Shown here in pieces: positions 1-35,555 of a stretch of DNA of 35,555 bases. The stretch's first letter is position 1; every line of letters starts with the position of its first letter. The notes under the pieces were generated by a model. It saw only the letters and a program-made list of their open reading frames with translations, was not told the origin of the DNA and did not search any database. Source of the stretch: a virus; IMG/VR virus record IMGVR_UViG_3300048583_000185, positions 1 to 35,555 of that record; one strand, written 5' to 3'. Both the position numbers and the translations under genes were made by a program.

Positions 1-127
1 ACACTGGCCGCATGCCCAAACGCATGCCGCTCCAACGTCAGCCGGATGTATTCGCTCAGCGACCGCTCGTCGCGGGCGGCCAGGCGCATGAGCGCGGTTT
101 CCAGCGTGTCGCTGATGCGGATCGTCG
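1..127. repeat. Terminal overlap identical to 35429-35555 (circular closure of the assembly)
   Basis: Read base by base: acactggccgcatgcccaaacgc...gctgatgcggatcgtcg occurs at both window ends. Confidence 0.95.
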
Positions 128-155
128 GCAGCTGCCGGATGCACTTTTCGGCCAT
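1..155 (-). CDS. Ribbon-helix-helix (CopG/Arc/MetJ-type) DNA-binding protein, 5' part. The gene wraps the window junction and ends at 35350 (77 aa in total).
   Basis: Hand translation from ATG 155-153: MAEKCIRQLPTIRISDTLETALMRLAARDERSLSEYIRLTLERHAFGHAASVMQGDGNVIEFSASERIADDVGGGRR. A beta-strand (TIRISDTL) followed by two helices is the RHH signature. The ORF is missing from the track because the window ends split it. Confidence 0.7.
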   Translation of the reverse strand, partial: MAEKCIRQLPTIRISDTLETALMRLAARDERSLSEYIRLTLERHAFGHAAS

Positions 156-176
156 GGCTCAGCTTTCGAAGAAGAA

Positions 177-204
177 GCCCCGACCAGCCGAAGCCGGCCG
201 GGGC
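177..204 (-). terminator. GC-rich hairpin with a TTCTTCTTCG tail on the minus strand, 21 nt upstream of the RHH start codon
   Basis: Minus strand reads GCCCCGGCCGGCTTCGGCTGGTCGGGGC then TTCTTCTTCGAAAGCTGAGCCATG. The outer stem is GCCCCG/CGGGGC. Confidence 0.4.
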
Positions 205-274
205 AAAGGCTCGCGCCGCCGGAGGTAAGCGGCGCCGTAAGGCAGGCAGCCAGTGCGAGCCGGAGACAAGGGAA

Positions 275-481
275 TCACGGCAGGGCTCGCTCAGCGATGA
301 GCCTGGCCACGCTGACCATGGCCAGAGCCGACTGCCGGTTGATGAATTCAGATGCTGGCTGCACGCCGGGCGCTTGCAGCGCCTTGACGCAGCGCTCCAC
401 AGCCCAACGCCGGCCGTGGCCGTTGGTGGCTGCCATGGCAGCGCGGCAGCACACAGACAGCGCAGCAGCGTCAGGCTGCAT
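275..481 (-). CDS. Hypothetical protein, 68 aa
   Basis: ATG is preceded by AGGAG at good spacing (minus strand GCAACCCAGGAGCCCACCCATG). No family motif recognised. Confidence 0.55.
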   Translation of the reverse strand: MQPDAAALSVCCRAAMAATNGHGRRWAVERCVKALQAPGVQPASEFINRQSALAMVSVARLIAERALP

Positions 482-579
482 GGGTGGGCTCCTGGGTTGC
501 GGGCACGACCGGTGCGCCTTCGGGGTGGGGCCAATCAGAATCGCGGCTCCTCAACACGCGACACTGAAAAGGCCAGGGC

Positions 580-933
580 ATGGAAGACGAACAGATCAAG
601 GAGTACATCACCGCGCTCCTACAGCCGGCACTGCAGGCGTTGAACGCTGCGGTGCAAAGCCTCAACGCTGTCGAGCAGCGGCTGCAGAGCGGGCTCGATG
701 CTCGTCTGCAGGTCGTCGACCAGCTTCTCCTCGAGCGGCATGCGGTGCAAGTCAACGCAATGGCCGTCAACGATGCAAGGTTCGCCGCGCTGATCGCCTA
801 CGTATCCGGCCAGGATGTCGGAGCAGCACTCGAAGCGTCTCGAGATGGATTCAAGAGCAAGCACCCCGCGCTGTTCGATGCTGCGCTGTGGCGCGTCGAA
901 CCCGACTGGCTGATTGCGCTGCAAAGCCGCTGA
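580..933 (+). CDS. Hypothetical protein, 117 aa, Ala/Leu/Gln-rich (coiled-coil-like)
   Basis: Protein-like composition with no Cys and G-rich first codon positions. It is almost perfectly antisense to an alternative minus-strand ORF (619-936), so the strand choice is uncertain. Confidence 0.45.
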   Translation: MEDEQIKEYITALLQPALQALNAAVQSLNAVEQRLQSGLDARLQVVDQLLLERHAVQVNAMAVNDARFAALIAYVSGQDVGAALEASRDGFKSKHPALFDAALWRVEPDWLIALQSR

Positions 934-935
934 CA

Positions 936-1253
936 TCAAGCGGCCTCAACAGGGCGGGCCAAGTCCGTGCGCGTCTCAAGCGGCGCGGCCGGTGCACCTT
1001 CGGCGGCGATCAGCTCGGGCCAGATGCGGTGCCAGTCGTCGGGGCGGAGGTCGCGGCGGGTGACTGCGCCCAAAGTCGCCTGCTCGATCGCGGCGCAATG
1101 CTCGGCAGGCACGCGCCCGCGATCAATCCACGCCCAGACTGTTGCGCGAGGTGATGGCCCCGTGATCCCAACCGCCGCCGCCAGCGCCGACTGTCCGCCA
1201 CAGAGTTCGGCCGCCCGTTTCAACGCGCCAGCCACGCTAAGGTCTGCATCCAT
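936..1253 (-). CDS. Cro-like / YdaS-type HTH regulator, first gene of the long minus-strand operon
   Basis: VWAWIDRGRVPAEHCAAIEQATLGAVTRRDLRPDDW fits the Cro/YdaS-type HTH pattern found in prophage switches. It is divergent from an XRE repressor across a palindromic operator. Confidence 0.75.
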   Translation of the reverse strand: MDADLSVAGALKRAAELCGGQSALAAAVGITGPSPRATVWAWIDRGRVPAEHCAAIEQATLGAVTRRDLRPDDWHRIWPELIAAEGAPAAPLETRTDLARPVEAA

Positions 1254-1260
1254 CAGCGAA

Positions 1261-1300
1261 GTCTATTCTGAGTTGACTGCGCCGTCAACTTGCAATAGAC
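1261..1300. promoter_or_regulatory. Operator copy 1: nested perfect palindrome with overlapping divergent sigma70-like promoters
   Basis: GTCTATTctgaGTTGACtgcgccGTCAACttgcAATAGAC. Plus strand: TTGACT (1273-1278), 17 nt, TAGACC (1296-1301). Minus strand: TTGACG (1288-1283), 17 nt, TAGACT (1265-1260). Confidence 0.6.
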
Positions 1301-1332
1301 CAAAAAATGATGGATTTGCATACGCTGCACGG

Positions 1333-1701
1333 GTGGAAGCATGGAATAAACAGCAACGCCAAGAGTTCGGCCTGCGGCTGCGGAAAGCCCGCGTCTTAAA
1401 AAAGATGACGCAGACAGAAGTCGGCGCCATGTTTGACGTCGGCAAAGCCGCCGTAAGCGCCTGGGAAGTTGGCAGCAACACGCCCAGCGCCGAACAACTC
1501 GCAAGAATGGCTGACGAGTTCGGAGCGTCAGTCGAATGGCTTCTTTTTGGCGTCGAAGGAGAGCCCTTCTCCATAGAACTGCGCCGCGTCCTGTCGAGCA
1601 TGTCGGCAGAGATGCTTCGCCGGATTGAGAATAGCGTCCGAGGCCAGCTGGACATGCCGCCGCGCGCCCAGTCGACGCAATCCGTTTGCGCTTTTGAGTA
1701 A
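1333..1701 (+). CDS. XRE-family HTH repressor (CI-like), 122 aa, GTG start inferred
   Basis: QEFGLRLRKARVLKKMTQTEVGAMFDVGKAAVSAWEVGSNTPSAEQLARMADEFGASVEWLLFG is a classic HTH_XRE domain. The only in-frame start upstream of it is GTG at 1333. The SD is weak. Confidence 0.75.
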   Translation: MEAWNKQQRQEFGLRLRKARVLKKMTQTEVGAMFDVGKAAVSAWEVGSNTPSAEQLARMADEFGASVEWLLFGVEGEPFSIELRRVLSSMSAEMLRRIENSVRGQLDMPPRAQSTQSVCAFE

Positions 1702-1715
1702 AAAAGTTAGGTGGT

Positions 1716-1756
1716 GTCTATTTTGCGTTGACAGACAGGTCAACTCTGCGTAGACT
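1716..1756. promoter_or_regulatory. Operator copy 2 plus a near-consensus promoter for the plus-strand early operon
   Basis: GTCTATTttgcGTTGACagacagGTCAACtctgcGTAGAC has the same half-sites as copy 1. TTGACA (1728-1733), 17 nt, TAGACT (1751-1756). Confidence 0.6.
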
Positions 1757-1797
1757 TTGCATCCAAGCGCTGACGGTCAGCGCCTTGGAGCGCACCG

Positions 1798-2184
1798 ATG
1801 CGAGAGACTGCCACCGCTGAACTGCTGAGCGTCAGCACAGAAGCCCGCGAACTTGCCCAGTTCGCAAACCCCGCAACCCACACGCCAGGCCCCTGGTGCT
1901 GGTTCGGCCACAGCTTGCGGCCGCTCACCGCCGACCCGCAGCACAGCGCAGTACACACCATCCTCGAAGCCGAGGGCGGCTGCGGCTACCTGATGAGCAA
2001 TCATCACCAGACTCTGCGCGAGCTGGACGCTGACATGCGCCTCATCAAGGAGGCGCCTGTCATGCTGGGCCTGCTGCAGGAACTGATGGGCACGCGCGAT
2101 GCGTGGGGCAACTACCACGTCAGCCGTGACCTCGAGCAACGCCTGTACGCCGCCATCTCCGACGCCACGGTGGCCGCGGTATGA
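1798..2184 (+). CDS. Hypothetical phage protein, 128 aa
   Basis: GGAG lies 8 nt upstream of the ATG. The HTPGPW...LIKEAPVMLGLLQEL pattern recurs in prophage early-region proteins of unknown function. Confidence 0.65.
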   Translation: MRETATAELLSVSTEARELAQFANPATHTPGPWCWFGHSLRPLTADPQHSAVHTILEAEGGCGYLMSNHHQTLRELDADMRLIKEAPVMLGLLQELMGTRDAWGNYHVSRDLEQRLYAAISDATVAAV

Positions 2185-2396
2185 ATTTCCCCGTCACACC
2201 CGAAGAGCGCGCCGCGCTGCTGCGCGCTTACGACGAGGCCGAAGCGACGGCCTACACCGACGAGATCATGGCGCGCGTGGATGCAGAGACCCGTGACAGC
2301 ACCCGCATGCCGTGGTGGTTCTGGGAGGCCGCAGTGGTCGCGGTGGTTCTGACCCTCGCACTGAGCGCTGCTTTCCCCTGGGGGGTTGCAACATGA
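2181..2396 (+). CDS. Small membrane protein, 71 aa
   Basis: ATGA start/stop overlap with the upstream gene. C-terminal hydrophobic helix WWFWEAAVVAVVLTLALSAAF. Confidence 0.6.
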   Translation: MNFPVTPEERAALLRAYDEAEATAYTDEIMARVDAETRDSTRMPWWFWEAAVVAVVLTLALSAAFPWGVAT

Positions 2397-2686
2397 TCAC
2401 GCCGATCAACCATCGCCAGTTTGGCGTGATCCGCGGTGGCGCAGCTTCGAAGACCAGCGGCCAAGACGGCGCGACCGACGACGCGAGCCAACACACCGAA
2501 GAGCGAAGCCCGCTGGCACGCAACATCGAGGCGCTGGTGCGCGACGCCTACAGTGCCGGTCGGCATCACGGTGAAGCGCAGCACTTCCGCCAGGGCTGGC
2601 GCTGGGGCCTGGTGGCCGGCCTGTTCTGGGGCGGCATGTCCGGCATCAGCCTGATCCTGCTGTTGCAGTGGATCGGTGCAGAATGA
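2393..2686 (+). CDS. Hypothetical membrane protein, 97 aa
   Basis: ATGA overlap at 2393-2396. C-terminal TM segment WGLVAGLFWGGMSGISLILLLQW. Confidence 0.6.
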   Translation: MITPINHRQFGVIRGGAASKTSGQDGATDDASQHTEERSPLARNIEALVRDAYSAGRHHGEAQHFRQGWRWGLVAGLFWGGMSGISLILLLQWIGAE

Positions 2687-2904
2687 GCGCCGTGCAGCAA
2701 TGCCTTTTCCCGGCACACGAGCAGCGCCAGCCAGCACAGCCACCGGCCAGCCAGTTCTACCAGGTGCACCGGCACGCCGACCGATGGGCTGTCACGCACG
2801 CCCTGCCCGGCATGAACGGCAGTTGGGCTGTCGACATCTGCTGCCCGACGCAGGCCGCAGCCGAGCGGGAAGCTGCAAGGATGAATGCGGAGCGCTCGGC
2901 ATGA
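2683..2904 (+). CDS. Hypothetical protein, 73 aa
   Basis: ATGA overlap at both ends (2683-2686 and 2901-2904). No motif recognised. Confidence 0.5.
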   Translation: MSAVQQCLFPAHEQRQPAQPPASQFYQVHRHADRWAVTHALPGMNGSWAVDICCPTQAAAEREAARMNAERSA

Positions 2905-3542
2905 CGACACGCATCCCGAACCTGCGCGGCAAAGACCCGATGCTGATCGGCATCTGCGGTCGGGCCGGTACCGGCAAGACGGCTGCTGCCGAGTACCTGA
3001 TGGCCCGCCACCGCTTCGAGGTGGCAGCCTTTGCCGACGAGCTGAAAGACCTGCTCGCGCTGCACTTTGAAACGCTGGGCGTCGACTATTCGCATCTGCA
3101 TGAGCCGACGCTGAAGAACGCGCCGCTGCCGGGCTTTGGCTTCGTCGCCGGCCCCGTCACCGCCCGCATGCTCATGCAGACTCTGGGCGACTGGGGCCGC
3201 GCGATCGACCCTGACTGGTGGGTCAACGCCCTGGCGCATCGCGTGGGCTTGCACGACGCGACCCAAGGCTCTTCGGGTTCCCATACACCGATCCACGATC
3301 GCATCTGCATCAGCGATGTGCGCTACCCGAACGAAGCCGAGTGGCTGATCGAGCGCGGGGGCGTGCTGATCCGGCTGCAGCGCGAACAGGCCCAGGCCGT
3401 GCGCGCGCACAGCAGCGAGAGCCACATCGACGAGCTGCCGGCGCACATCGACCTGTACAACGAGGGGCCGACGCTGGCCGGCTTTCATGCGCTGCTCGAC
3501 GGTGCGCTGGCCAGCGTGGGCGTGGATGCGACAGCGCCATGA
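2901..3542 (+). CDS. P-loop dNMP-kinase-like protein
   Basis: Walker A LIGICGRAGTGKT. AFADELKD and ICISDVRYPNEAEWLIERGGVLIRLQR match the phage deoxynucleoside-monophosphate kinase family pattern (xxDVRFPNE). Confidence 0.65.
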   Translation: MTTRIPNLRGKDPMLIGICGRAGTGKTAAAEYLMARHRFEVAAFADELKDLLALHFETLGVDYSHLHEPTLKNAPLPGFGFVAGPVTARMLMQTLGDWGRAIDPDWWVNALAHRVGLHDATQGSSGSHTPIHDRICISDVRYPNEAEWLIERGGVLIRLQREQAQAVRAHSSESHIDELPAHIDLYNEGPTLAGFHALLDGALASVGVDATAP

Positions 3543-4120
3543 GCCACGCAACCGGCACTTACCTGGGCGGCATTCGAACGATCGACTGCCTGCAAAAGCG
3601 TAGCCACGTCTGCCCCGACACCGACTGCTGGCACTGGCGCATGGCCATCGTGCAGGGCACGCCCAAGGTCCATTTCACAACGCCGGACAGCGGCCGAAGC
3701 ATCAGCATGCGCGGCCGCCGCGCGGCGCTGTACCTGCTGCGAGGCATCGACGTGCCCGCCGGGCATGTGGCCTACCCGCGCATGACCTGCAAGAGCCGCG
3801 ACTGCGTCAACCCGGCGCACTCGACCAGCGGCGACCGAGACGCACACGGGCTGTGGCTGCGCAAGACCGGCGCCGTGGCCGGGCTGGCAAGCAAGTGCGC
3901 CGGCAGCCGCAAGGGATGGGAAGGCCGGCGCAAACTCACGCCCGAGGCCGTGGCCGACATCCGCTCGAGCGCCGAGAGCAACCTGGCATTGGCCGCCCGC
4001 TGGGGCGTCAGCCAGTTCGCCATCTGGTCGTGTAGGGTGGGCCAGACACACCGCAACGCGGTTGCCGGCAGCAGCGTTTTCAACTGGATACCAGCAGCAC
4101 AGATCGGGCGGCGGTCATGA
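3539..4120 (+). CDS. HNH-like (degenerate) DNA-binding protein with C-terminal HTH
   Basis: CWHWRMA...RRAALYLLRG...TCKSRDCVNPAHS resembles phage HNH_3-type proteins (CxNPxH). The tail KLTPEAVADIRSSAESNLALAARWGVSQFAIWS is the usual HTH appendix. Confidence 0.5.
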   Translation: MSHATGTYLGGIRTIDCLQKRSHVCPDTDCWHWRMAIVQGTPKVHFTTPDSGRSISMRGRRAALYLLRGIDVPAGHVAYPRMTCKSRDCVNPAHSTSGDRDAHGLWLRKTGAVAGLASKCAGSRKGWEGRRKLTPEAVADIRSSAESNLALAARWGVSQFAIWSCRVGQTHRNAVAGSSVFNWIPAAQIGRRS

Positions 4121-4521
4121 CGGATCAGTCAGACGCTGAGCACCCGCCTGCCACTGCCGGCGCCGACCCATTCGCCTGCATGGCCTCCGTCTTGGCCAAG
4201 GACAGGCCGCAGCAAAGCTGGATTACCGCCCCGCAGGTGACGCCGCTGCCAGAGGGAACCACCCGCGTCTCGGCGATGCTTTCGCTGCTGGCGACCGGCG
4301 GGCAATCTGCGGCCGAGCTGGCTGCGGCGGCTGGCGGCATTCCCACTGGGGCAGTGAGTGCGCTGCTGCACTCCCGCATGGAGCGCGGGCAGGTTCGGCG
4401 GGAGTGTGGAATCTATGAGTTGGTCCCTGAGTACGAAGACGAACTACACGCCAAGCTCAAGGCGGCCGCTTTGTGGCTGCGAGAGCACGGGTATGTGGTC
4501 AGCAGGGAGACGAAAGCATGA
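4117..4521 (+). CDS. Hypothetical protein with a probable winged-helix domain, 134 aa
   Basis: ATGA overlap. VSAMLSLLATGGQSAAELAAAAGGIPTGAVSALLHSRMERGQVRRE looks like a MarR-type wHTH. Confidence 0.55.
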   Translation: MTDQSDAEHPPATAGADPFACMASVLAKDRPQQSWITAPQVTPLPEGTTRVSAMLSLLATGGQSAAELAAAAGGIPTGAVSALLHSRMERGQVRRECGIYELVPEYEDELHAKLKAAALWLREHGYVVSRETKA

Positions 4522-4784
4522 GCAGCGTCAAGAAGCCCGTGCGGCTGGAGCTGAACAACAGCGGAAGCTGGAAGGTGATCGGCCGCTTCGAAGCGGCAGA
4601 CGACGAGCAGAGCAGTTTGGTGCTGGATGCGGCCGAGGAACTGATTAAGACGCTGCACAACAGCGAAGACCCGAAGCGCTGCCCGACGATGCGGGTGAGC
4701 ATGGACGGCGGTCTGGGGAGCGTGCTTTTGCGCTGGAGCTTGGTCGACGGATGGCGGGATGCGGAGACGGGCAGGGCGGCCTAA
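4518..4784 (+). CDS. Hypothetical protein, 88 aa. Its TAA stop lies inside the GCCTAAC box of the distal attC.
   Basis: ATGA overlap at 4518-4521. Protein-like composition (MSSVKKPVRLELNNSGSWKVIGRFEAADDEQ...). Confidence 0.6.
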   Translation: MSSVKKPVRLELNNSGSWKVIGRFEAADDEQSSLVLDAAEELIKTLHNSEDPKRCPTMRVSMDGGLGSVLLRWSLVDGWRDAETGRAA

Positions 4785-4832
4785 CGCCTAGCTCACCGGC
4801 CGCTTGCGGTCCGGTGCAGCGCGGTGTTATGC
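4779..4832 (-). other. attC site (distal, 54 bp)
   Basis: Minus strand: GCATAAC-ACCGC-GCT[G]CACCGG[A]CCGC-AA-GCGGCCGGTGAGC-TAGGC-GTTAGGC. It has a 13-bp stem, two extrahelical bases 7 nt apart on the R''/L'' arm, and unpaired 5-nt spacers. Confidence 0.7.
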
Positions 4833-4857
4833 GTGTGGTTCCGAAGCGTGGAGATGT

Positions 4858-5913
4858 ATGAATGAGTTGGCTCTTTTCGCAGGCGCTGGTGGCGGAATAC
4901 TCGCAGGCCACATGCTGGGCTGGCGCACCGTCTGCGCAGTTGAGCGTGATGCCTACGCCGCACAAGTTCTGGCGCAACGACAGAACGATGGAGCCCTCCG
5001 ACCATTCCCGATTTGGGCTGACGTGTGCGGCTTTGACGGAAGACCGTGGCGCGGACTTGTTGACGTGGTTTCGGGGGGCTTCCCTTGCCAAGACATCAGC
5101 GTTGCCGGCAAGGGCGCCGGCATTGACGGAGAGCGCAGCGGCATGTGGAGCCACATGGCGCGGATCATTGGCGAAGTTCGACCCCGCTTCTGCTTCGTGG
5201 AGAACAGCCCAGCCCTCGTTACTCGGGGACTCGGAAGAGTGCTCGGTGACCTGGCCGCGCTCGGGTATGACTGCCGGTGGACTGTGCTGGGAGCTGCCGA
5301 CGTTGGCGCCCCCCACCAGCGCGACAGGTTCTGGCTTGTGGGTGCCGACACCCTGCGCGACCGATGCGAAGCCGATCACGGGCGGGAACCTTTACGTGAC
5401 GGAAACGGGCACGGTGCGACACATGCGGCCGGATGGCAAGAGCAGCAACCGGGGCCTTGCAGCGAGTGCGGCCATGTGGCCGACACCCACCAGCAGCCTG
5501 GGCACGAACGGCGGCCGTGTGACGCCTGCCAAGGCTCTGGAAGGCGGGACGCTGATAGAGGCGCTGAGTGCGCGGACCACTTGGCCGACGCCGACCGTAT
5601 GCGACAACTACAACCGCAAGGGAGCCAGCGCGACCAGCGGGGACGGGCTTGCCACTGCGGTGCTGAAGTTTCCGACGCCTTCGACGCTTGGCATCAATGG
5701 CGGCAGTCATTCTCAAGCGGCGGCAGTGAAGCGCGGCCAGGCGGTGACGGAAGTCAATGGTGGCTCGCTGAACCCGACGTGGGTCGAGTGGCTAATGGGG
5801 TGGCCTATCGGGTGGACCGACTTAAGGCACTCGGAAACGGACAGGTGCCCCGATGCGCAGCCACAGCCTGGCGAATGCTCACTGGTGGCATGAGCGACAC
5901 GCATAACGGCTGA
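4858..5913 (+). CDS. dcm: DNA (cytosine-5) methyltransferase, 351 aa (frame A)
   Basis: Motif I LFAGAGGG, motif IV GGFPCQDIS, motif VI FVENSPAL, motif VIII APHQRDRFWLVG, C-terminal motif X RLKALGNGQVP. GGAG at 4850-4853. The middle third (Arg/Asp/Gly/His-rich) looks poor in this frame. Confidence 0.7.
   Translation: MNELALFAGAGGGILAGHMLGWRTVCAVERDAYAAQVLAQRQNDGALRPFPIWADVCGFDGRPWRGLVDVVSGGFPCQDISVAGKGAGIDGERSGMWSHMARIIGEVRPRFCFVENSPALVTRGLGRVLGDLAALGYDCRWTVLGAADVGAPHQRDRFWLVGADTLRDRCEADHGREPLRDGNGHGATHAAGWQEQQPGPCSECGHVADTHQQPGHERRPCDACQGSGRRDADRGAECADHLADADRMRQLQPQGSQRDQRGRACHCGAEVSDAFDAWHQWRQSFSSGGSEARPGGDGSQWWLAEPDVGRVANGVAYRVDRLKALGNGQVPRCAATAWRMLTGGMSDTHNG
4862..5893 (+). CDS. Overlapping same-strand ORF in the +1 frame of dcm, 343 aa, with WPTPT repeats and a C-terminal LNPTWVEWLMGWPIGWT motif
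   Basis: ATG lies 8 nt after the same GGAG. Balanced composition throughout. Repeated (W/F)PTP(T/S) units. I recognise the C-terminal motif from phage methylase-associated proteins. It is unclear whether it is translated. Confidence 0.4.
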   Translation: MSWLFSQALVAEYSQATCWAGAPSAQLSVMPTPHKFWRNDRTMEPSDHSRFGLTCAALTEDRGADLLTWFRGASLAKTSALPARAPALTESAAACGATWRGSLAKFDPASASWRTAQPSLLGDSEECSVTWPRSGMTAGGLCWELPTLAPPTSATGSGLWVPTPCATDAKPITGGNLYVTETGTVRHMRPDGKSSNRGLAASAAMWPTPTSSLGTNGGRVTPAKALEGGTLIEALSARTTWPTPTVCDNYNRKGASATSGDGLATAVLKFPTPSTLGINGGSHSQAAAVKRGQAVTEVNGGSLNPTWVEWLMGWPIGWTDLRHSETDRCPDAQPQPGECSLVA

Positions 5914-5985
5914 GTTCAGCGGGCCGCGTGATGCGGCCTGAAAGTGCGGAGTCCGTGACGGCTCCGCTGCAACGATTGGTTAGGC
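5901..5985 (-). other. attC site (proximal, 85 bp)
   Basis: Minus strand: GCCTAAC-CAATC-GTT[G]CAGCGG[A]GCCG-(32-nt variable loop)-CGGCCCGCTGAAC-TCAGCC-GTTATGC. This is the same 5-nt/6-nt spacer and bulge geometry as the aadA1 attC. Confidence 0.75.
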
Positions 5986-6006
5986 CCTGGTGGCCGAAGG
6001 GGAAGA

Positions 6007-6255
6007 ATGATGAACACCAAAGAGAAAGCCGCGATGGATGCGGGCGTGCAGTTCGGCATGAACATGCTCAAACTGGTGCCAAGCGACGACAAGCTGGCGC
6101 AGGAAGCCCACATCACCGGCGTGCTGGTGGCATTCATGGGCGCGCTGTGGGGCACGCTGGGCACCGAGTACGCACGGGGCTTCATTGAGGCCCAGCTTCG
6201 CGGCATGGAGCCCGACAAGCCGCATGAGCGATTCACGGCGCCGCCCGTGCAGTAA
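6007..6255 (+). CDS. Hypothetical protein, 82 aa (cassette 1 ORF)
   Basis: GGGGAAG SD precedes ATGATG. Flanked by GTTAGGC (5979-5985) and GCCTAAC (6258-6264). Central hydrophobic stretch ITGVLVAFMGALWGTLG. Confidence 0.6.
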   Translation: MMNTKEKAAMDAGVQFGMNMLKLVPSDDKLAQEAHITGVLVAFMGALWGTLGTEYARGFIEAQLRGMEPDKPHERFTAPPVQ

Positions 6256-6257
6256 GG

Positions 6258-6318
6258 GCCTAACTTCAATTCGCCAACACCCTGACCACCTCCCCGTCGC
6301 ATAACACCGAGCCGCCGC
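6258..6318 (-). other. attI-like site
   Basis: Minus strand from the intI ATG: GTTATGC (6305-6299), GTTGGCG (6278-6272), GTTAGGC (6264-6258). All are direct repeats with no attC-type palindrome, comparable to the DR/L/R box layout of attI1 ending in GTTAGGC. Confidence 0.55.
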
Positions 6319-7350
6319 ATGCAAGTCATTGATCTGCCATTACCCGCAGCGGTTACGCACGACGCCGCTCCCGCGTTATGCGACGCGCCACCGAAGCGGC
6401 TTAAGCAGCTCATGCGCGAAGCCTGCGCGGTGCGCCATTACAGCCGGCGCACGTTCCAGGCGTACTGGCACTGGTCGAAGCGCTTCATCCTCTGGTCAGG
6501 TAAGCGGCACCCGCGCGACATGGGCCAGCTCGAGGTGTCCGAGTTCCTGACCTGGCTGGCCATCGAAGGCAACGTCTCAGCCAGCACTCAGCGCCAAGCT
6601 CTGCACGGCATCCTGTTCTTGTACCAGGCGGCGCTCGGTATCCAGATCGGCTGGATCGAAAACATCGTGCGGGCCAAGCAAGCCCAGCGACTGCCCACAG
6701 TGATGTCTGTCGACGAGACTTCGGCAGTGCTGGCGGCCACCAGCGGCACGCCTGGGCTTTTCCTGCGGCTGCTGTACGGTACCGGCCTGCGGCTGATGGA
6801 AGGTCTGCGCCTGCGGGTCAAAGACCTGGACATCCCCCAGCGATTGGTGATCGTGCGCGGCGGCAAGGGCGACAAGGATCGCGTCACCGTGCTCCCAGAG
6901 CGCCTCGTCAAGCCCCTGACCGAGCTGCTCGATCAGCGCCGCCGCTGGCACCAGATCGACATGGCCACCGGGCACGCCAGCGTTGACCTGCCACACGCGC
7001 TGGCCAAGAAGTACCTGCGCGCTGGCTCCGAGTGGCCCTGGCAGTACGTCTTTGCCACGCCCGAGTACCACGTCAACCCAGACACCGGCGAAGAGCGCCG
7101 TCACCACCTTTTCGACTGGACCATCCAGCGCGCCATGAAGGACGCGGTACGCGCTGCCGGCGTCACGAAGCCAGCCACCCCGCACACGCTGCGGCACTGC
7201 TTTGCCACTCACCTGCTGCAGGCCGGCACCGACATCCGCCGCATCCAGGAGCTGCTGGGTCATGCAGACGTCAGCACGACCATGATCTACACCCACGTCG
7301 CCTCCATGGGACACACCGGCGTGCGCAGCCCGTTGGACGCGCTTGCATGA
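6319..7350 (+). CDS. intI: Integron integrase (IntI-type tyrosine recombinase), 343 aa
   Basis: Collinear by eye with IntI1: HYSRRTFQAYWHWSKRFI, STQRQAL, LLYGTGLRLMEGLRLRVKDLD, GKGDKDR, ATPHTLRHCFATHLL, LLGHADVSTTMIYTHV, GVRSPLDAL. It also has the IntI-specific insert DLPHALAKKYLRAGSEWPWQYVFA (nt 6979-7056). Confidence 0.85.
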   Translation: MQVIDLPLPAAVTHDAAPALCDAPPKRLKQLMREACAVRHYSRRTFQAYWHWSKRFILWSGKRHPRDMGQLEVSEFLTWLAIEGNVSASTQRQALHGILFLYQAALGIQIGWIENIVRAKQAQRLPTVMSVDETSAVLAATSGTPGLFLRLLYGTGLRLMEGLRLRVKDLDIPQRLVIVRGGKGDKDRVTVLPERLVKPLTELLDQRRRWHQIDMATGHASVDLPHALAKKYLRAGSEWPWQYVFATPEYHVNPDTGEERRHHLFDWTIQRAMKDAVRAAGVTKPATPHTLRHCFATHLLQAGTDIRRIQELLGHADVSTTMIYTHVASMGHTGVRSPLDALA

Positions 7351-7586
7351 CCACACTCGACATCCCCGCGATTGCTGAGCTGCTTGGCGTCAGCGCTAAG
7401 ACCGTGCGCGACCGCTTGGTGCATCGGCCCGACTTTCCGCCGCCACTGCTTGCAGCCGGCCCTCGATCTCGCCGCTGGTGCGCCGCCGAAGTCACCGCCT
7501 GGGCGACGCCAGCCGCGCGGCGATCTCCTGCGCCGTCTCGCGGAAATACACCCGCAGCAGAAGCGACAAGTCCCGATGCCCGCTGA
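7347..7586 (+). CDS. xis: Excisionase/AlpA-like MerR-type HTH protein
   Basis: LDIPAIAELLGVSAKTVRDRLVHRPDFPPPL...RRWCAAEVTAW is the HTH_17/Xis pattern. ATGA overlap with the intI stop. The 3' 95 nt overlap the convergent integrase gene, so the true stop is uncertain. Confidence 0.6.
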   Translation: MTTLDIPAIAELLGVSAKTVRDRLVHRPDFPPPLLAAGPRSRRWCAAEVTAWATPAARRSPAPSRGNTPAAEATSPDAR

Positions 7587-8517
7587 TCCGTGCGAGCGTC
7601 AGCACATCGACGCGGCGCGACAGCATTGTCAGCGCCGTGGCTCTGGCGTCATGGAAATGCACATCGCCCAGCATCACAGAATCCCGCACTCGCCGGAATA
7701 GCGTGTCCAGGGTGGCTGAAGACAGCGGAAGCAGCCGCCCGTCATCACCCGCCGCCGCCTCCGCCAGCCAGCCCAGCACGCGCGCGCCCTGCGGAGTCAG
7801 CGGCACCAGGCGCCGACCGACAGCGTGCGCTGTCTTGTGGTCGGCCAGCGTCACTACGCGGCGTTGCAGATCGACGGAGCCAACGGTTAGGCCCATGATC
7901 TCGCCGGCCCGCATCGCCGTGCGCAAGCTGACCAGCAGCGCCCAGGCAACGCACTGCAGACCGGTCACCGGCGGCACTGCTGTCCGGTAATCGCAGCGGC
8001 GCATGATGGTGCGGATTTCGCGCCATCCCATGCGCCGGTCGCGCGGGATGGCCTCGGCGGGCATCCTGACGGCTCGCCAGGGCGTCGGCGACGGACTCCA
8101 GGCCCACTCGGTGCTGGCCACCGTCCAGACGTGCCGCAGGATGTTGATGTCGCGCTGCACGCTGGCCGGCGTCACGCGCTGCAGCCGGGCGTCGCGCCAC
8201 TGGCCGAGGTCGTCGGCGGTGATGGTGTGCAGCACCTTGCCGCACAGCGCAGGAAAGTCGCGCTGGATGGCCGCCAGGCGCAGCCGCTCGGCCCTCGCGC
8301 CGCGCTTTTCCGCCGTGATCTCGCGCTCGTAGCGGTCAAGCGCATCGGCCAGCGTCTTGCGCGGCCAACGGCTGACGGTGCCGGCAAGGATCGCCGCTTC
8401 TTCCTGCGCGGCCCATGAGCTTGCCGCAGCTTTGGTGCCGAAGGTGCGCGACGTCCGCACACCCTGGCGCTCGATCTCAACGCGCCAGCCTTTCGCCGTC
8501 TTGCGGTAATACGCCAC
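7492..8517 (-). CDS. int: Phage tyrosine integrase, 341 aa
   Basis: N-terminal arm-binding-type MAYYRKTAKGWRVEIERQG. Catalytic LRTAMRAGEI (R), HFHDARATALT (HxxR), GHRDLSLLLRVYF (H...Y). Adjacent to attP. Confidence 0.85.
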   Translation of the reverse strand: MAYYRKTAKGWRVEIERQGVRTSRTFGTKAAASSWAAQEEAAILAGTVSRWPRKTLADALDRYEREITAEKRGARAERLRLAAIQRDFPALCGKVLHTITADDLGQWRDARLQRVTPASVQRDINILRHVWTVASTEWAWSPSPTPWRAVRMPAEAIPRDRRMGWREIRTIMRRCDYRTAVPPVTGLQCVAWALLVSLRTAMRAGEIMGLTVGSVDLQRRVVTLADHKTAHAVGRRLVPLTPQGARVLGWLAEAAAGDDGRLLPLSSATLDTLFRRVRDSVMLGDVHFHDARATALTMLSRRVDVLTLARISGHRDLSLLLRVYFRETAQEIAARLASPRR

Positions 8518-8741
8518 GCGGGAATCCTTGCGGGACTGGCGCGGGATGACGCCGAGGTCTTGCGGGATTCTGCGCGGCGTTAGGCGGGATTGAGCCTAGG
8601 TATTTCGGGGTTGTGCGGGGCGTTGCGAGGTGCTATGCGGTGCAGGTTCTGGCGCCCCCGGCAGGAATCGAAAGCCTCGCCAGCGCTTGCGATCGACGGC
8701 ATAGGCGGGAATTGTGCGGGATGCGAATTAGGTCAGCCGAC
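8518..8741. other. attP region with arm-type repeats
   Basis: Six or more same-orientation copies of GCGGGA(T), starting at 8530, 8541, 8562, 8584, 8705 and 8715, plus a degenerate copy at 8614. They flank a tRNA-3'-end-like core. Confidence 0.6.
8650..8672 (-). other. attP core candidate: 3' end of a tRNA gene (T-loop, T-stem, acceptor stem, CCA)
   Basis: Minus strand TTCGATTCCTGCCGGGGGCGCCA reads as T-loop TTCGATT, stem CCTGC, acceptor CGGGGGC, discriminator G, CCA. The upstream bases do not complete a T-stem or the rest of a tRNA. Confidence 0.55.
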
Positions 8742-9251
8742 CTAACCGCGCCGCAAAATGTCATCTTTGCGCGCGCTGCCGGCGCTGCTGCCAAAGTAGT
8801 AGGCAACGATCGTACCCCAAGCGCCGCCCAGCGCGCCCAGCATGACCAGCAGCGCCTCGCTGCCGCGCTCTGGCATGCCGGCGGCCAGCAGCCAAGCGAG
8901 CACCCCGAAGAAACCCAGCGTCACGGCCGCAGCCAGCGCTCTCGGCGTCCAGTGGTCGCCGGTCTTGACTTCACGGTCACGCGCGTCAGACCGGTCAGCC
9001 TGATGCAGCTTCTCGACGTCGATATCCAGCTCGCGCATGCGCGTGGAAAACGCCTGATCAGCTTGCCGGATGGCCAGCAGCGCATCCGGCCCACCGGCGG
9101 TGACAGCTGCCGCCACATCGTCCACGGTGGCGTCTTCGCGCCCCAGTAGCTTCGCCGACAGCGCGGCCACTGCCGCCCCTGCAAGCGGTCCGCCAAGCGC
9201 CGCGGCCAGACCAGGAGCTACCGCGCCAACGACATCTTTCCAGTCCGCCAT
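8742..9251 (-). CDS. Holin, 3-TM GTA-type, 169 aa
   Basis: AGGAGG SD precedes the ATG at 9251. Gly/Ala-rich N-terminus, then TM segments LAAAVTLGFFGVLAWLLAAG and ALLVMLGALGGAWGTIVAYYFG. Lies immediately downstream of the endolysin. Confidence 0.6.
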   Translation of the reverse strand: MADWKDVVGAVAPGLAAALGGPLAGAAVAALSAKLLGREDATVDDVAAAVTAGGPDALLAIRQADQAFSTRMRELDIDVEKLHQADRSDARDREVKTGDHWTPRALAAAVTLGFFGVLAWLLAAGMPERGSEALLVMLGALGGAWGTIVAYYFGSSAGSARKDDILRRG

Positions 9252-9253
9252 GG

Positions 9254-9721
9254 TTACACCTCCTGCAAGTTCGCGGCGATACGCCGGGCCCAGCCGCGCC
9301 CAAAGCTCGGCCAGGTCGGCAGGTCGGCCATCAGCGCGAGCCTCTGCCCGTTGAATCGAGCCAGCAGGCGCGGCGCAGGCATGCTCTGCACGGCCTGCAG
9401 CGTCCGCGGCCCGAGGATGCCGTCGACCGTCTCGCCGACGCACCGCTGCAGCATCCGCACCGCGGTGCTGACACCACTGTTCACCGCGCAGTCAAAAAGG
9501 TGCAGCTTCAGAGAGTCGGGCACAGCGTCGCAGCCGGCAGGCCCCCAGTAGTCGCGCCGGTAGATGGAGCGCGCCTGGTCCACCGTAAGCGCTGCGATGT
9601 CAAGCTGCGGGTAGCTGCGCTTGCTGATCCCGTACTTGCTTTCGCCGCCCGGGTCCGCGCGGTGATTGATGTAGCCGCCCTCGTGCTTGACCAGGGCCGC
9701 GAAGGCTTCGTCGAATGTCAT
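9254..9721 (-). CDS. Endolysin, glycoside hydrolase family 108-like with a peptidoglycan-binding C-terminus
   Basis: TFDEAFAALVKHEGGYINHRADPGGESKYGI is the GH108 N-terminal signature (EGGY...DPGG.T.YGI). Confidence 0.8.
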   Translation of the reverse strand: MTFDEAFAALVKHEGGYINHRADPGGESKYGISKRSYPQLDIAALTVDQARSIYRRDYWGPAGCDAVPDSLKLHLFDCAVNSGVSTAVRMLQRCVGETVDGILGPRTLQAVQSMPAPRLLARFNGQRLALMADLPTWPSFGRGWARRIAANLQEV

Positions 9722-9732
9722 GACCACCACCC

Positions 9733-10014
9733 CTACTCAAACAGCCGATACACCCGCAACGCCACCGCCTCGCCGGTCCAGGTACCGGTCGGCAGCGTCA
9801 CCTTCGCCTGCAGCTTCCATTCGCCGTTCTGGTTGAAGGTGTCGACGAGGCTGACGAACCGCACCTTGGTGGTCTCAACCACCGTGGCTGCCCAGCTCAC
9901 CGTGGTGCCATCCGGCCGCCGCACCTCGATGCTCTGCGCCGTTGCACCAGTCAGGCTGACGCCGGTGTCGAGCTTCAGCTCGGTGCCGGTGTCGCCCATG
10001 TAGACCTTGGTCAT
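9733..10014 (-). CDS. Hypothetical beta-rich protein, 93 aa
   Basis: Clean ORF with protein-like composition. Sits between the receptor-binding region and the lysis genes. Confidence 0.55.
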   Translation of the reverse strand: MTKVYMGDTGTELKLDTGVSLTGATAQSIEVRRPDGTTVSWAATVVETTKVRFVSLVDTFNQNGEWKLQAKVTLPTGTWTGEAVALRVYRLFE

Positions 10015-10018
10015 GCTT

Positions 10019-10180
10019 TCACTCCAGGTAGATCGGTGACGGCAGCGTCACCTGGCGCGTTACCGGGCTGCCCAGGGCCAGCGCTTGAACCAGTTGGCTG
10101 TCGCCTGAGACCTGCAGTGTCGCCAGCGACATCGCCGCCACGGCAACGGTCATTGACGACGACAGGGCAATGGTTTCCAT
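10019..10180 (-). CDS. Hypothetical small protein, 53 aa
   Basis: ATG lies 2 nt after the stop of the upstream gene (TGACCATG). METIALSSSMTVAVAAMSLATLQVSGD... Confidence 0.4.
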   Translation of the reverse strand: METIALSSSMTVAVAAMSLATLQVSGDSQLVQALALGSPVTRQVTLPSPIYLE

Positions 10181-10182
10181 GG

Positions 10183-10587
10183 TCAACTGAAGACCCGCGA
10201 GGTCAGCTCGATAACCGTGCCAGCGCGACTGTGAAGCCGCAGCACCACGCGGCCTGGCTGGGCCACGGCAGACTGTGCGGCCAGGACAGCGGCGCCGACG
10301 CCCACTCCCAGCAACGCGGCGCGGACCGCCTGCCGAGGTTGCAGTGCAGCTTGGCCAGCACCAGTGCCCGCAAGATCGGCCCGTAGCCACAGCCGCGCGG
10401 CCATCTGACCGTGGCTAGCCGCATAGGCTTGCAGCGCAGCCTGTACGACAGTGCGGGCCTGAACAGTGGCGATTCCCGCCCCTGCAACGACAAGAGCCGC
10501 ATCGACGTAACTGCCACCTGGCGGCCCTGCCGCGCCGCCCAGCCAAGGGCCGACCCATTGGCCTGACCAGCTCCCAGCCCACGCCAT
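10183..10587 (-). CDS. Hypothetical Ala/Gly-rich protein, 134 aa
   Basis: MAWAGSWSGQWVGPWLGG... The frame was chosen because of the tight stop/start packing with its neighbours. Confidence 0.45.
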   Translation of the reverse strand: MAWAGSWSGQWVGPWLGGAAGPPGGSYVDAALVVAGAGIATVQARTVVQAALQAYAASHGQMAARLWLRADLAGTGAGQAALQPRQAVRAALLGVGVGAAVLAAQSAVAQPGRVVLRLHSRAGTVIELTSRVFS

Positions 10588-10591
10588 AGCG

Positions 10592-11077
10592 TCACGTCCC
10601 GTCTCGCGTGGTGATGGTGCGAGTGCCGGCGCTCATCGTGCCAGCCAACCGCGTCTTGCTTCCGTCCAGGCTCTGAAAGGCCGGGTTGCCATCCAAACCC
10701 GTGGCGTTGCCAGCCGCCTGGGCAAGCAAGATGCGAAAGGCCTGTTTGAGCGTCAGCGTACCTTCGATCGGCGACTCCAGCACCGCACCGGCCACGTCGT
10801 CTTGGCTCAACTCGCTGACCGTCACCCTCAGACCGGCGCGCACTAACTTCACCGGGCGCAGCAGCGGCGCATCACCGCCGCCCTGAGCCTGCACAGCCGC
10901 GCTGCGCATGCGGTACGGGCGCAGCAGCGGCGCGTCGCCGGTGCCAACTTGGGAGAGGGCGGCGCGTATGCGCTGCACCGGCCTGGCCAACCCCACCGAG
11001 CCGACCCCAGGCGGCGCCACCATCGCGGCGCACGCCGGGCCGTACCACTGCAGGGCGAACAAGGGCGCCAGCGGCAT
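10592..11077 (-). CDS. Hypothetical virion-associated protein, 161 aa, with an internal GDAPLLRP repeat
   Basis: ATG at 11077, 1 nt after the upstream stop. C-terminus IEGTLTLKQAFRILLAQAAGNATG resembles a motif seen in phage tail-accessory proteins. Confidence 0.5.
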   Translation of the reverse strand: MPLAPLFALQWYGPACAAMVAPPGVGSVGLARPVQRIRAALSQVGTGDAPLLRPYRMRSAAVQAQGGGDAPLLRPVKLVRAGLRVTVSELSQDDVAGAVLESPIEGTLTLKQAFRILLAQAAGNATGLDGNPAFQSLDGSKTRLAGTMSAGTRTITTRDGT

Positions 11078-35353: not shown

Positions 35354-35555
35354 CGACGCCCCCCCCCTACATCATCGGCAATGCGTTCTGATGCACTGAA
35401 CTCGATGACATTGCCGTCGCCCTGCATGACACTGGCCGCATGCCCAAACGCATGCCGCTCCAACGTCAGCCGGATGTATTCGCTCAGCGACCGCTCGTCG
35501 CGGGCGGCCAGGCGCATGAGCGCGGTTTCCAGCGTGTCGCTGATGCGGATCGTCG
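35350..35555 (-). CDS. RHH protein gene, 3' part (same gene as feature 1-155; 35429-35555 duplicates 1-127)
   Basis: Hand-translated across the junction. Stop TGA at 35352-35350. Confidence 0.7.
   Translation of the reverse strand, partial: TIRISDTLETALMRLAARDERSLSEYIRLTLERHAFGHAASVMQGDGNVIEFSASERIADDVGGGRR
35429..35555. repeat. Terminal overlap identical to 1-127
   Basis: Verbatim identity read by eye. Confidence 0.95.

Follow-up and report, generated by a model that had tools for sequence, protein, structure and literature searches.

Does the short palindrome that directly follows an early gene in a phage genome belong to that gene, as a terminator or regulatory hairpin, or is it a recombination site that marks the edge of a mobile gene cassette? 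The question is raised by positions 4779–4832 of IMG/VR virus record IMGVR_UViG_3300048583_000185, a stretch of 35,555 nucleotides (nt) analyzed here from end to end and referred to as the window. A preliminary description, made from the letters of the sequence, took this 54-nt element to be an attC site, the second and shorter of two, abutting phage coding sequence. Having followed up that description, we hold with considerable confidence that 4779–4832 is the attC of a 1122-bp methyltransferase cassette and the last site of a two-cassette array, in a complete integron that sits inside a circularly assembled temperate-phage genome of ~35.4 kb.

The features by which an attC can be recognized are well characterized. 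On the bottom strand the site has the heptamer RYYYAAC at its 5′ end and GTTRRRY at its 3′ end; its central spacers are of 5–6 nt; and the arm that faces the AAC triplet carries extrahelical bases at position 16 (usually G) and at 23/24 (T), spaced by 6 bp (Nivina et al. 2016, PMC5027507). In that study no single unpaired base was individually required, and short terminal structures were typical of efficient mobile-integron sites. Integrons in phages are themselves not new: Qi et al. (2023, PMC9892861) describe integrons and attC clusters in phage genomes, methyltransferase cassettes among them, and report IntI1 activity on phage attC sites. The complete integrons they give are three among 10,705 phage genomes, of which one is a fragment of the chromosomal integron of a Vibrio host, another a class 1 mosaic carried by P1, and the third resides in an inactive Shewanella prophage.

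Results

Structure of the 54-nt site

Read directly, the + strand of 4779–4832 is GCCTAAC GCCTA GCTCACCGGCCGC TT GCGG[T]CCGGTG[C]AGC GCGGT GTTATGC and the minus strand is GCATAAC ACCGC GCT[G]CACCGG[A]CCGC AA GCGGCCGGTGAGC TAGGC GTTAGGC, where brackets mark unpaired bases. The stem has 3 + 6 + 4 = 13 pairs, with G and A as the unpaired bases of the minus strand, exactly as the earlier 54-bp parse had it. The minus strand is the conventional top strand of the site, and the + strand the predicted recombinogenic bottom strand. On the latter, the 5′ heptamer R′ (GCCTAAC, 4779–4785) is a perfect RYYYAAC, while the 3′ heptamer R″ (GTTATGC, 4826–4832) departs from GTTRRRY once, with T at the second R; the resulting R box pairs at six of its seven positions. 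The central spacers, GCCTA and GCGGT, are 5 nt each, the L box is of 3 bp, and the extrahelical bases, counted from the 3′ end, are C16 (4818) and T23 (4811), 6 bp apart.

When folded as single-stranded DNA, the + strand gave −15.7 kcal/mol (z −2.8; 2 of 200 shuffles equally good), better by 1 kcal/mol than the minus strand at −14.7 kcal/mol. The predicted fold opens the innermost pair and leaves a 3-bp terminal stem with a 4-nt loop. The tight AA loop described earlier is right in its letters, but a 2-nt loop is sterically unrealistic. A second detail also needs amendment: the L″ arms of the two sites in the window, described as near-identical, match at 11 of 14 positions (GCTGCACCGGACCG and GTTGCAGCGGAGCC), and the consensus given for them is not quite right. 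The TAA stop of the preceding 88-amino-acid (aa) open reading frame (ORF) does lie within the R′ box, as claimed, and cleavage is predicted at the A/C bond directly 3′ of it (4784/4785), which bears out the observation that the array abuts phage coding sequence.

Covariance model and geometry scans

For comparison, attC-like sites were gathered from 80 IMG/VR loci encoding integrase relatives (comparison loci are designated by L numbers), and 47 short sites, all from loci other than the window and including the classical aadA site of L080, were aligned to build a covariance model (CM), R1. Run over the window with filters off, R1 matched 4779–4832 at full length on the minus strand with 38.0 bits (E 1.8e-7), as compared to 9.6 bits on the + strand, and matched a companion 85-nt site, also on the minus strand, with 46.9 bits (E 1.2e-9). 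There was no other significant match in the 35.5-kb window, the next best being a non-attC match of 14.9 bits. Scanned on both strands for strict attC geometry, the whole window gave 12 of 12 pairs at the 54-nt and 85-nt sites only. In 20 other loci, every one of 62 CM matches lay on the strand opposite intI.

The CM E-values, the strand specificity and the context rule out a chance palindrome. Because the bookkeeping of heptamers is symmetric, we also considered the reverse polarity, in which the + strand would be the top strand and ORF and attC would stand in the canonical relation. It was rejected because R1 scores 38 bits on one strand and 9.6 on the other, because the unpaired bases are found on the arm facing the AAC of the + strand, and because attI and intI are at the right-hand end, in the canonical divergent geometry.

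The integron platform

An integron integrase is encoded beside the two sites. This IntI matches TIGR02249 with 417.6 bits (cut-off 265) over 311 of 315 profile positions and is 52% identical to IntI1; the catalytic residues R, K, HxxR, H and Y (RKHRHY) are all conserved, and alignment with IntI1 shows that the integron-specific insertion ALxxKYxRAGxxWxWQYVF is retained. Conserved motifs of the attI region are GTGYTGGCGAATTGAWGTTAGGC and GTGTTATGCGACGG. Nucleotide similarity to the closest integrase loci starts at 6256–6259, where the attI heptamer GCCTAAC (6258–6264) begins, and spans attI and intI only, with identities of 91% for L005, 79% for L006/L007 and 76% for L008; in an alignment of these loci with the window, a conserved attI segment of ~60 nt is kept up to GTTAGGC and diverges straight after it. 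Relatives of the window IntI are encoded by 188 IMG/VR contigs. Among the matches listed, those at 66% identity or more were on viral contigs only (L005–L011), and scans of metagenomes and genomes with IntI gave relatives at no more than 59% identity, again among the matches listed. The window thus carries what is apparently, judged from its sequence, a complete and functional integron composed of intI, attI and two cassettes, and the identification of 4779–4832 as attC agrees with the geometry, with the CM on the strand originally chosen, with the adjoining intI and attI, and with the cassette boundaries.

Several further observations concern the platform. A perfect 11-nt inverted repeat, CGTCGCATAAC and GTTATGCGACG (6295–6305 and 6375–6385), flanks the start codon of intI and is matched weakly by the CM (14.9 bits), and the R″-spacer end of the 54-nt attC (4816–4833) is 89% complementary to the attI-region motif CGCATAACACCGAGCCGC (6298–6315); the repeat and this motif are possibly extra integrase-binding sites. 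In L005 (positions 1–61), which encodes the closest integrase (95% aa identity), the contig ends exactly at the attI GTTAGG, a break in assembly of the kind that variable cassette content in that population would produce.

Cassettes and their recurrence in other arrays

The boundaries of cassette 2, which carries the methyltransferase gene, were placed by the R-box rule (PMC5027507) and are backed by homologous cassettes in L060 and L249–L253. In L060 a homologous methyltransferase gene (75% nt identity) is flanked by two attC matches, and another homologue, P0010, is found as an identical protein in at least three arrays (L249/L251, L250/L253 and L252). In L249–L253 all genes are on one strand and all 29 strong attC matches on the other. 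Outside the window, methyltransferase cassettes homologous to this one were present in at least five arrays, whose neighbours differ. The heptamers around the methyltransferase gene of the window are complementary, GTTATGC at 4826–4832 and GCATAAC at 5901–5907, and the flanking heptamers covary from one array to another: GTTATGC/GCATAAC in the window, GTTAGCA/TGCTAAC in L060, and GTTGGGC/GCCCAAC in L249–L253. The similarity of the homologous cassettes in L060 and L249–L253 ends at these heptamers, and beyond the A/C points the sequences of the window, L060 and L249–L253 differ.

The 54-nt site has a family of its own. Its R′-spacer-L′ arm, TAACGCCTAGCTMACCGGC, is common to L060 and to 40 IMG/VR contigs, all viral, and in L256 and L275 both arms are shared with the window site, including C16 and T23, in sites of 120 and 116 nt. 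By its sequence, the 54-nt site looks like a short-loop version of the L256/L275 type. Sites of 52–54 nt, supported by the CM or matched by geometry, occur also in the arrays of L007, L065 and L274, the last of which has a site of 54 nt again. The ends of the arrays in the window, L002 and L249/L251 coincide with stop codons; the TAA within RYYTAAC may simply be the first stop available in GC-rich DNA.

As for cassette 1, the 82-aa ORF has 302 homologues at 72–95% identity, located within other attC arrays in L254 and L255. Neither the 82-aa nor the 88-aa protein matched a family in Pfam, NCBIfam or PHROGs.

Orientation of the cassette ORFs

A striking observation, which the preliminary description left unmentioned, is that both cassette ORFs are on the + strand and hence antisense to the top strand of attC; their direction is that of the phage early genes, of intI and of the excisionase-like ORF after intI. 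In the class 1 control, L080, aadA and its attC are on one strand and intI is on the opposite one, the canonical arrangement, so the inversion in the window is real. The inverted layout was also seen in L087, where the ORF start and its ribosome-binding site are inside the attC loop, and in L060 and L249–L255. Every array reached through the cassette proteins had it as well.

We made a census of orientation, a crude one based on geometry-defined sites and on the best ORF between consecutive sites, after removal of duplicates. Inverted cassettes outnumbered canonical ones by 30 to 6 in the viral IntI loci (L005–L084), whereas in the loci from bacterial genomes and metagenomes (L088–L247) 6 were inverted and 29 canonical (Fisher p 1.8e-8). 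In the family of sites with the TAACGCCTAGCTMACCGGC arm (L256–L295), the corresponding numbers were 22 and 7.

A Pc promoter that reads into ORFs oriented like the attC top strand is typical of integrons, though not strictly part of their definition, and it is on this point that the window differs from the textbook arrangement. The cassette ORFs are most likely expressed by read-through from a phage early promoter rather than from an integron Pc, and the attC would then be present in the mRNA as an intergenic hairpin that lacks a tail and is not a terminator.

Phage context

The coordinates of all features are collected in Table 1. Of the contig, 35,428 bp are unique; the assembly is circular or else terminally redundant, and its terminal overlap places the integron inside the phage genome; the phage-type tyrosine integrase marks the element as a temperate phage. 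Phage early genes occupy 1–4784, and across the integron from them are structural and replication genes, with PHROG matches in the window to the large terminase, portal, major head, tape measure, tail fibre and primase/helicase. There were no close whole-phage relatives among cultured phages, where the match was limited to the N-terminal half of the methyltransferase.

Table 1. Positions of the integron and phage features in the window; attC, attI and cassette limits are predicted
Feature	Position	Strand	Basis or remark
Phage early gene, 88 aa	4518..4784	+	ORF list; TAA 4782–4784 ends at the predicted crossover
54-nt attC of the methyltransferase cassette, attI-distal last site of the array	4779..4832	−	Sequence, DNA fold, geometry scan, CM R1
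Gene cassette 2, 1122 bp	4785..5906	−	Between two A/C crossovers; 54-nt attC and antisense methyltransferase gene
C5 DNA methyltransferase, alpha frame, 351 aa	4858..5913	+	PF00145, E 8e-31; TIGR00675; three-frame translation
Second ORF, +1 frame, 343 aa	4862..5893	+	Fully overlaps the methyltransferase; WPTP repeats and LNPTWVEWLMGWPIGWT motif
85-nt attC of cassette 1, companion site	5901..5985	−	CM R1, geometry 12/12
Gene cassette 1, 357 bp	5907..6263	−	Carries the 82-aa ORF, antisense to attC
82-aa ORF	6007–6255	+	GC3 0.84
attI region	6258..6318	−	R box GTTAGGC on the minus strand (6264–6258), predicted crossover 6263/6264
Integron integrase IntI, 343 aa	6319..7350	+	TIGR02249
Phage-type tyrosine integrase	7492..8517	−	PF00589, E 2e-13; without integron-integrase signature
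Exact 127-nt repeat of positions 1–127	35429..35555	.	Terminal overlap

Homologues of the 88-aa gene, 69–75% identical and of equal C-terminal length, are present on four IMG/VR phage contigs (L001–L004). In all four the start codon of the following gene overlaps or directly abuts the stop of the homologue, and the palindrome is absent; no CM match was found near the homologue in L001, L003 or L004. The palindrome is thus not a conserved terminator of the 88-aa gene; such conservation was what had been named beforehand as speaking against an attC. An empty attI fused to the 88-aa stop, for which a comparison with relatives had been suggested, was not found either: three of the relatives have no integron there and L002 has a different one.

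The integron of L002, whose 88-aa homologue is 75% identical at the aa level, lies ~1.2 kb downstream of that gene, within 6001–10831. It has three attC sites (7467–8766, minus strand) and an IntI (9776–10831) that is 57% identical to that of the window, and the TAA of a candidate + strand ORF ending at 7479 falls inside its last R′ box. In L254, at least six attC sites are spread over 4230–8238 in a phage early operon (ERF, Gp157) with no visible integron integrase; the array includes a homologue of the 82-aa ORF and has an N6/N4 methyltransferase gene after it, so that this is a phage-borne attC cluster without intI. L043 from IMG/VR and L168 from a Rubrivivax metagenome-assembled genome gave identical match coordinates and are both 34,391 bp long; they are probably one contig, a hint that the hosts of these phages with integrons may be Burkholderiales.

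The methyltransferase cargo

The alpha frame (frame 0) of the C5 methyltransferase has motifs I–VIII and a C-terminal LGNGQVP motif. The +1 frame over the same DNA is open throughout, with a motif, WLMGWPIGWT, that resembles motif IX, and it is this frame that gene callers choose over the methyltransferase frame. Its product has >5000 database homologues, commonly of ~300 aa, and the best 120 of these are without a Pfam domain. The two-frame layout is shared with L060 (2669–3601), L023 (3640–4600) and L059 (1660–2420).

In M.EcoHK31I, motif IX is supplied by the beta chain, whose coding sequence lies within the alpha gene in a different frame (PMC2836561). The window gene resembles it in having an alpha chain that has motifs I–VIII plus X, with a second, motif-IX-like polypeptide in another frame of the same DNA; it differs in its second frame, which stays open along the entire gene (343 aa), the likeness being one of layout and motifs. 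By analogy, the +1 product is likely to be a beta subunit of the M.EcoHK31I type. We rejected the reading of the gene as a frameshifted or pseudogenized methyltransferase because frame 0 is a complete ORF with LGNGQVP and because four homologues keep the layout of two frames, for which M.EcoHK31I is a precedent. The alpha frame runs on through the R box GCATAAC to a TGA stop at 5911–5913, within the 85-nt attC of the neighboring cassette, so part of the penultimate codon, the last codon and the stop would vary with array context. This orphan C5 methyltransferase would plausibly shield phage DNA from host restriction.

Discussion

We conclude that the 54-nt palindrome is very probably an attC, but several points weigh against this identification and against the cassette history that goes with it. 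The site is 3 nt under the classical range of 57–141 nt in PMC5027507, a range that is descriptive; position 16 is C, where G is usual, a departure that recurs in L256 and L275; and in the fold its spacers can form 2–3 pairs, leaving them less open than in model sites. The E-values of the CM come from a shortened calibration, and its training sites were chosen by a geometry filter that the sites of the window also pass. The comparison with L249–L253 is not that of a cassette moved as a whole: identity is 93% at the nt level between window 4824–5490 and L249 3451–4117, falling to 77% after 5490, and it begins at 4824, the edge of R″, which is 41 nt to the right of the predicted crossover at 4785. 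The attC cores are moreover unrelated (54 nt in the window as compared to 58 or 70 nt in L249–L253), so the core was not inherited together with the gene. Mosaic homologous recombination, or occasional top-strand exchange at R″, could account for this pattern. No sigma-70-like promoter was detected in 4000–8700, and we thus infer the route of cassette expression from the arrangement of the genes. Recombination at the 54-nt site is likewise attributed to it by analogy with characterized sites.

Taking the recombination steps from the established mechanism of the family, one could envision that, whenever this DNA is in single-stranded form, the + strand, being the bottom strand of attC, adopts a hairpin with the R box GCCTAAC/GTTATGC, 5-nt spacers, the 3-bp L box, protruding C16 and T23, and a minimal loop. 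IntI would bind this hairpin and cleave between A4784 and C4785. Exchange with the 85-nt attC (5906/5907) would excise the methyltransferase cassette as a circle, and exchange of that circle with attI (6263/6264) would reinsert it beside intI. The predicted junction of the circular cassette is GCATAA/CGCCTAGC, which may also be written GAGCGACACGCATAA/CGCCTAGCTCACC; loss of the methyltransferase cassette would leave GGCGGCCTAA/CGGCTGAGTTC, and the predicted empty junction is GGCGGCCTAA/CTTCAATTCGCC. Since the crossover falls immediately 3′ of TAA, the 88-aa gene would be unaltered by cassette traffic.

Could the site be an attC by descent that is now inactive, a shortened relic persisting as an intergenic palindrome at the end of the array? 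Its length of 54 nt, minimal loop, C for G at position 16 and partly pairable spacers would fit such a history, as would a CM score of 38 bits, below the 50–68 bits of many sites in relatives; and with L256 and L275 having the same arms around far longer central regions, the window copy looks like a deletion derivative. However, the R box, the L box and the two unpaired bases at 6-bp spacing are intact, the arms are conserved with L256 and L275, further sites of 52–54 nt exist in arrays, and the adjoining IntI looks functional. Efficient mobile-integron sites, moreover, typically end in short structures and depend on no one unpaired base (PMC5027507). We therefore consider a relic unlikely. 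A different history would have the cassette inserted alone at a secondary GTT site that the stop codon creates (TAA-C), so that the palindrome marks an off-target insertion. The junction does coincide with the stop codon (GCC TAA/C), similar coincidences occur at the array ends of L002 and L249/L251, and integron integrases do use secondary sites. Yet the site continues directly into a second cassette, attI and intI, all in standard order and orientation, for which ordinary insertion at attI suffices, and the stop codon at each array end needs no other cause than being the first that GC-rich DNA offers; we regard an off-target insertion as very unlikely, and it concerns history only, for the site would remain an attC.

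The explanation with which this text began, that the palindrome serves the 88-aa gene as a terminator or regulatory RNA hairpin, or is a leader of the methyltransferase gene, and resembles an attC by accident, deserves hardly any credence. It is true that a GC-rich hairpin stands directly after a stop codon and 25 nt ahead of the next start, and that it would be part of the mRNA if the operon is read through. But no T tract follows the stem (the sequence there is GCGGTGTTATGCGTGTGG), no terminator-like site was called in 4000–8700, no Rfam family matched, and the hairpin is missing after the homologous gene in four related phages, whereas the match to the attC model is significant and strand-specific and an integrase adjoins. 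A secondary effect of the hairpin on translation may exist alongside its identity as an attC.

The 54-nt site is an ordinary attC, typical apart from its length and C16, and phage-borne integrons were known before. It shares with the class 1 aadA attC (attC aadA7 type) an architecture of R″ (7 nt), then 5 nt, 3 bp and one unpaired base, then 6 bp and an unpaired A (on the bottom strand T), then a stem with a short loop, and finally 6 bp, 3 bp, 5–6 nt and R′ (7 nt), as well as its strand relation to intI; an aadA site was recovered in L080 (GTCTAACAATTCATTCAAGCCGACGCCGCTTCGCGGCGCGGCTTAATTCAAGCGTTAGAT). The aadA site differs in being 60 nt long rather than 54, in having G rather than C at position 16 and a 3′ spacer of 6 rather than 5 nt, and in that aadA ends just before R″, whereas the ORF of the window is on the bottom strand and starts 25 nt from R″. 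With the phage integrons of Qi et al. (PMC9892861), the window has in common a complete integron in a temperate phage and methyltransferase cargo; in contrast to those described there, its integrase belongs to a clade that, among the matches listed, was confined to viral contigs at 66% identity or more, its platform, a compact module of 1.1 kb, closes the early block, and its cassette ORFs are antisense to their attC sites. No report on the orientation of cassette ORFs was found in the accessible text of that paper. Cassettes with inverted ORFs and promoters of their own are mentioned both there and in PMC5027507.

Inverted cassettes, such as those of toxin-antitoxin genes, are also a feature of sedentary chromosomal integrons, where the ORF is likewise opposite to the attC top strand and cannot be expressed from Pc. 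There, however, they are a minority, whereas they make up both cassettes of the window and 30 of 36 in the related viral arrays, and the inverted ORFs of the window are aligned with the flanking phage operon. In the "reverse" integrons of Treponema and some other phyla, intI is co-directional with the cassettes and is inverted relative to attI and the attC sites. The window resembles these in that intI and cassette ORFs are transcribed in one direction, but it keeps the canonical orientation of intI, attI and attC, and what is inverted is the ORFs. In the searchable literature, subscription papers being outside its coverage, we found no description of reversed ORF polarity combined with placement at the end of the early block. 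Whether the site belongs to a lineage of phage-resident integrons of reverse polarity, with ORFs on the attC bottom strand that often start inside or beside the attC and are expressed by read-through, is a proposition on which we find ourselves evenly divided.

The presence of a complete integron in a phage genome matters because cassette exchange would let the phage swap small accessory genes, and the 188 IMG/VR contigs with a relative of this IntI, together with the 40 that carry the attC arm, suggest that phage integrons are far commoner in uncultivated phages. If the reversed polarity is general, the prediction of cassette expression in viral integrons changes, standard annotation, built on the order ORF then attC, would place ORFs in the wrong cassette, and these arrays offer a natural comparison for the question of how attC sites become attached to genes. 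If the lineage we propose is real, phages would own a private stock of small early genes open to exchange, orphan methyltransferases among them and possibly other counter-defence genes, and integrons would differ in how the direction of the ORF is coupled to that of attC, a point of relevance to the unsolved origin of cassettes. The methyltransferase cargo and its recurrence across many arrays suggest that escape from restriction is a selective driver.

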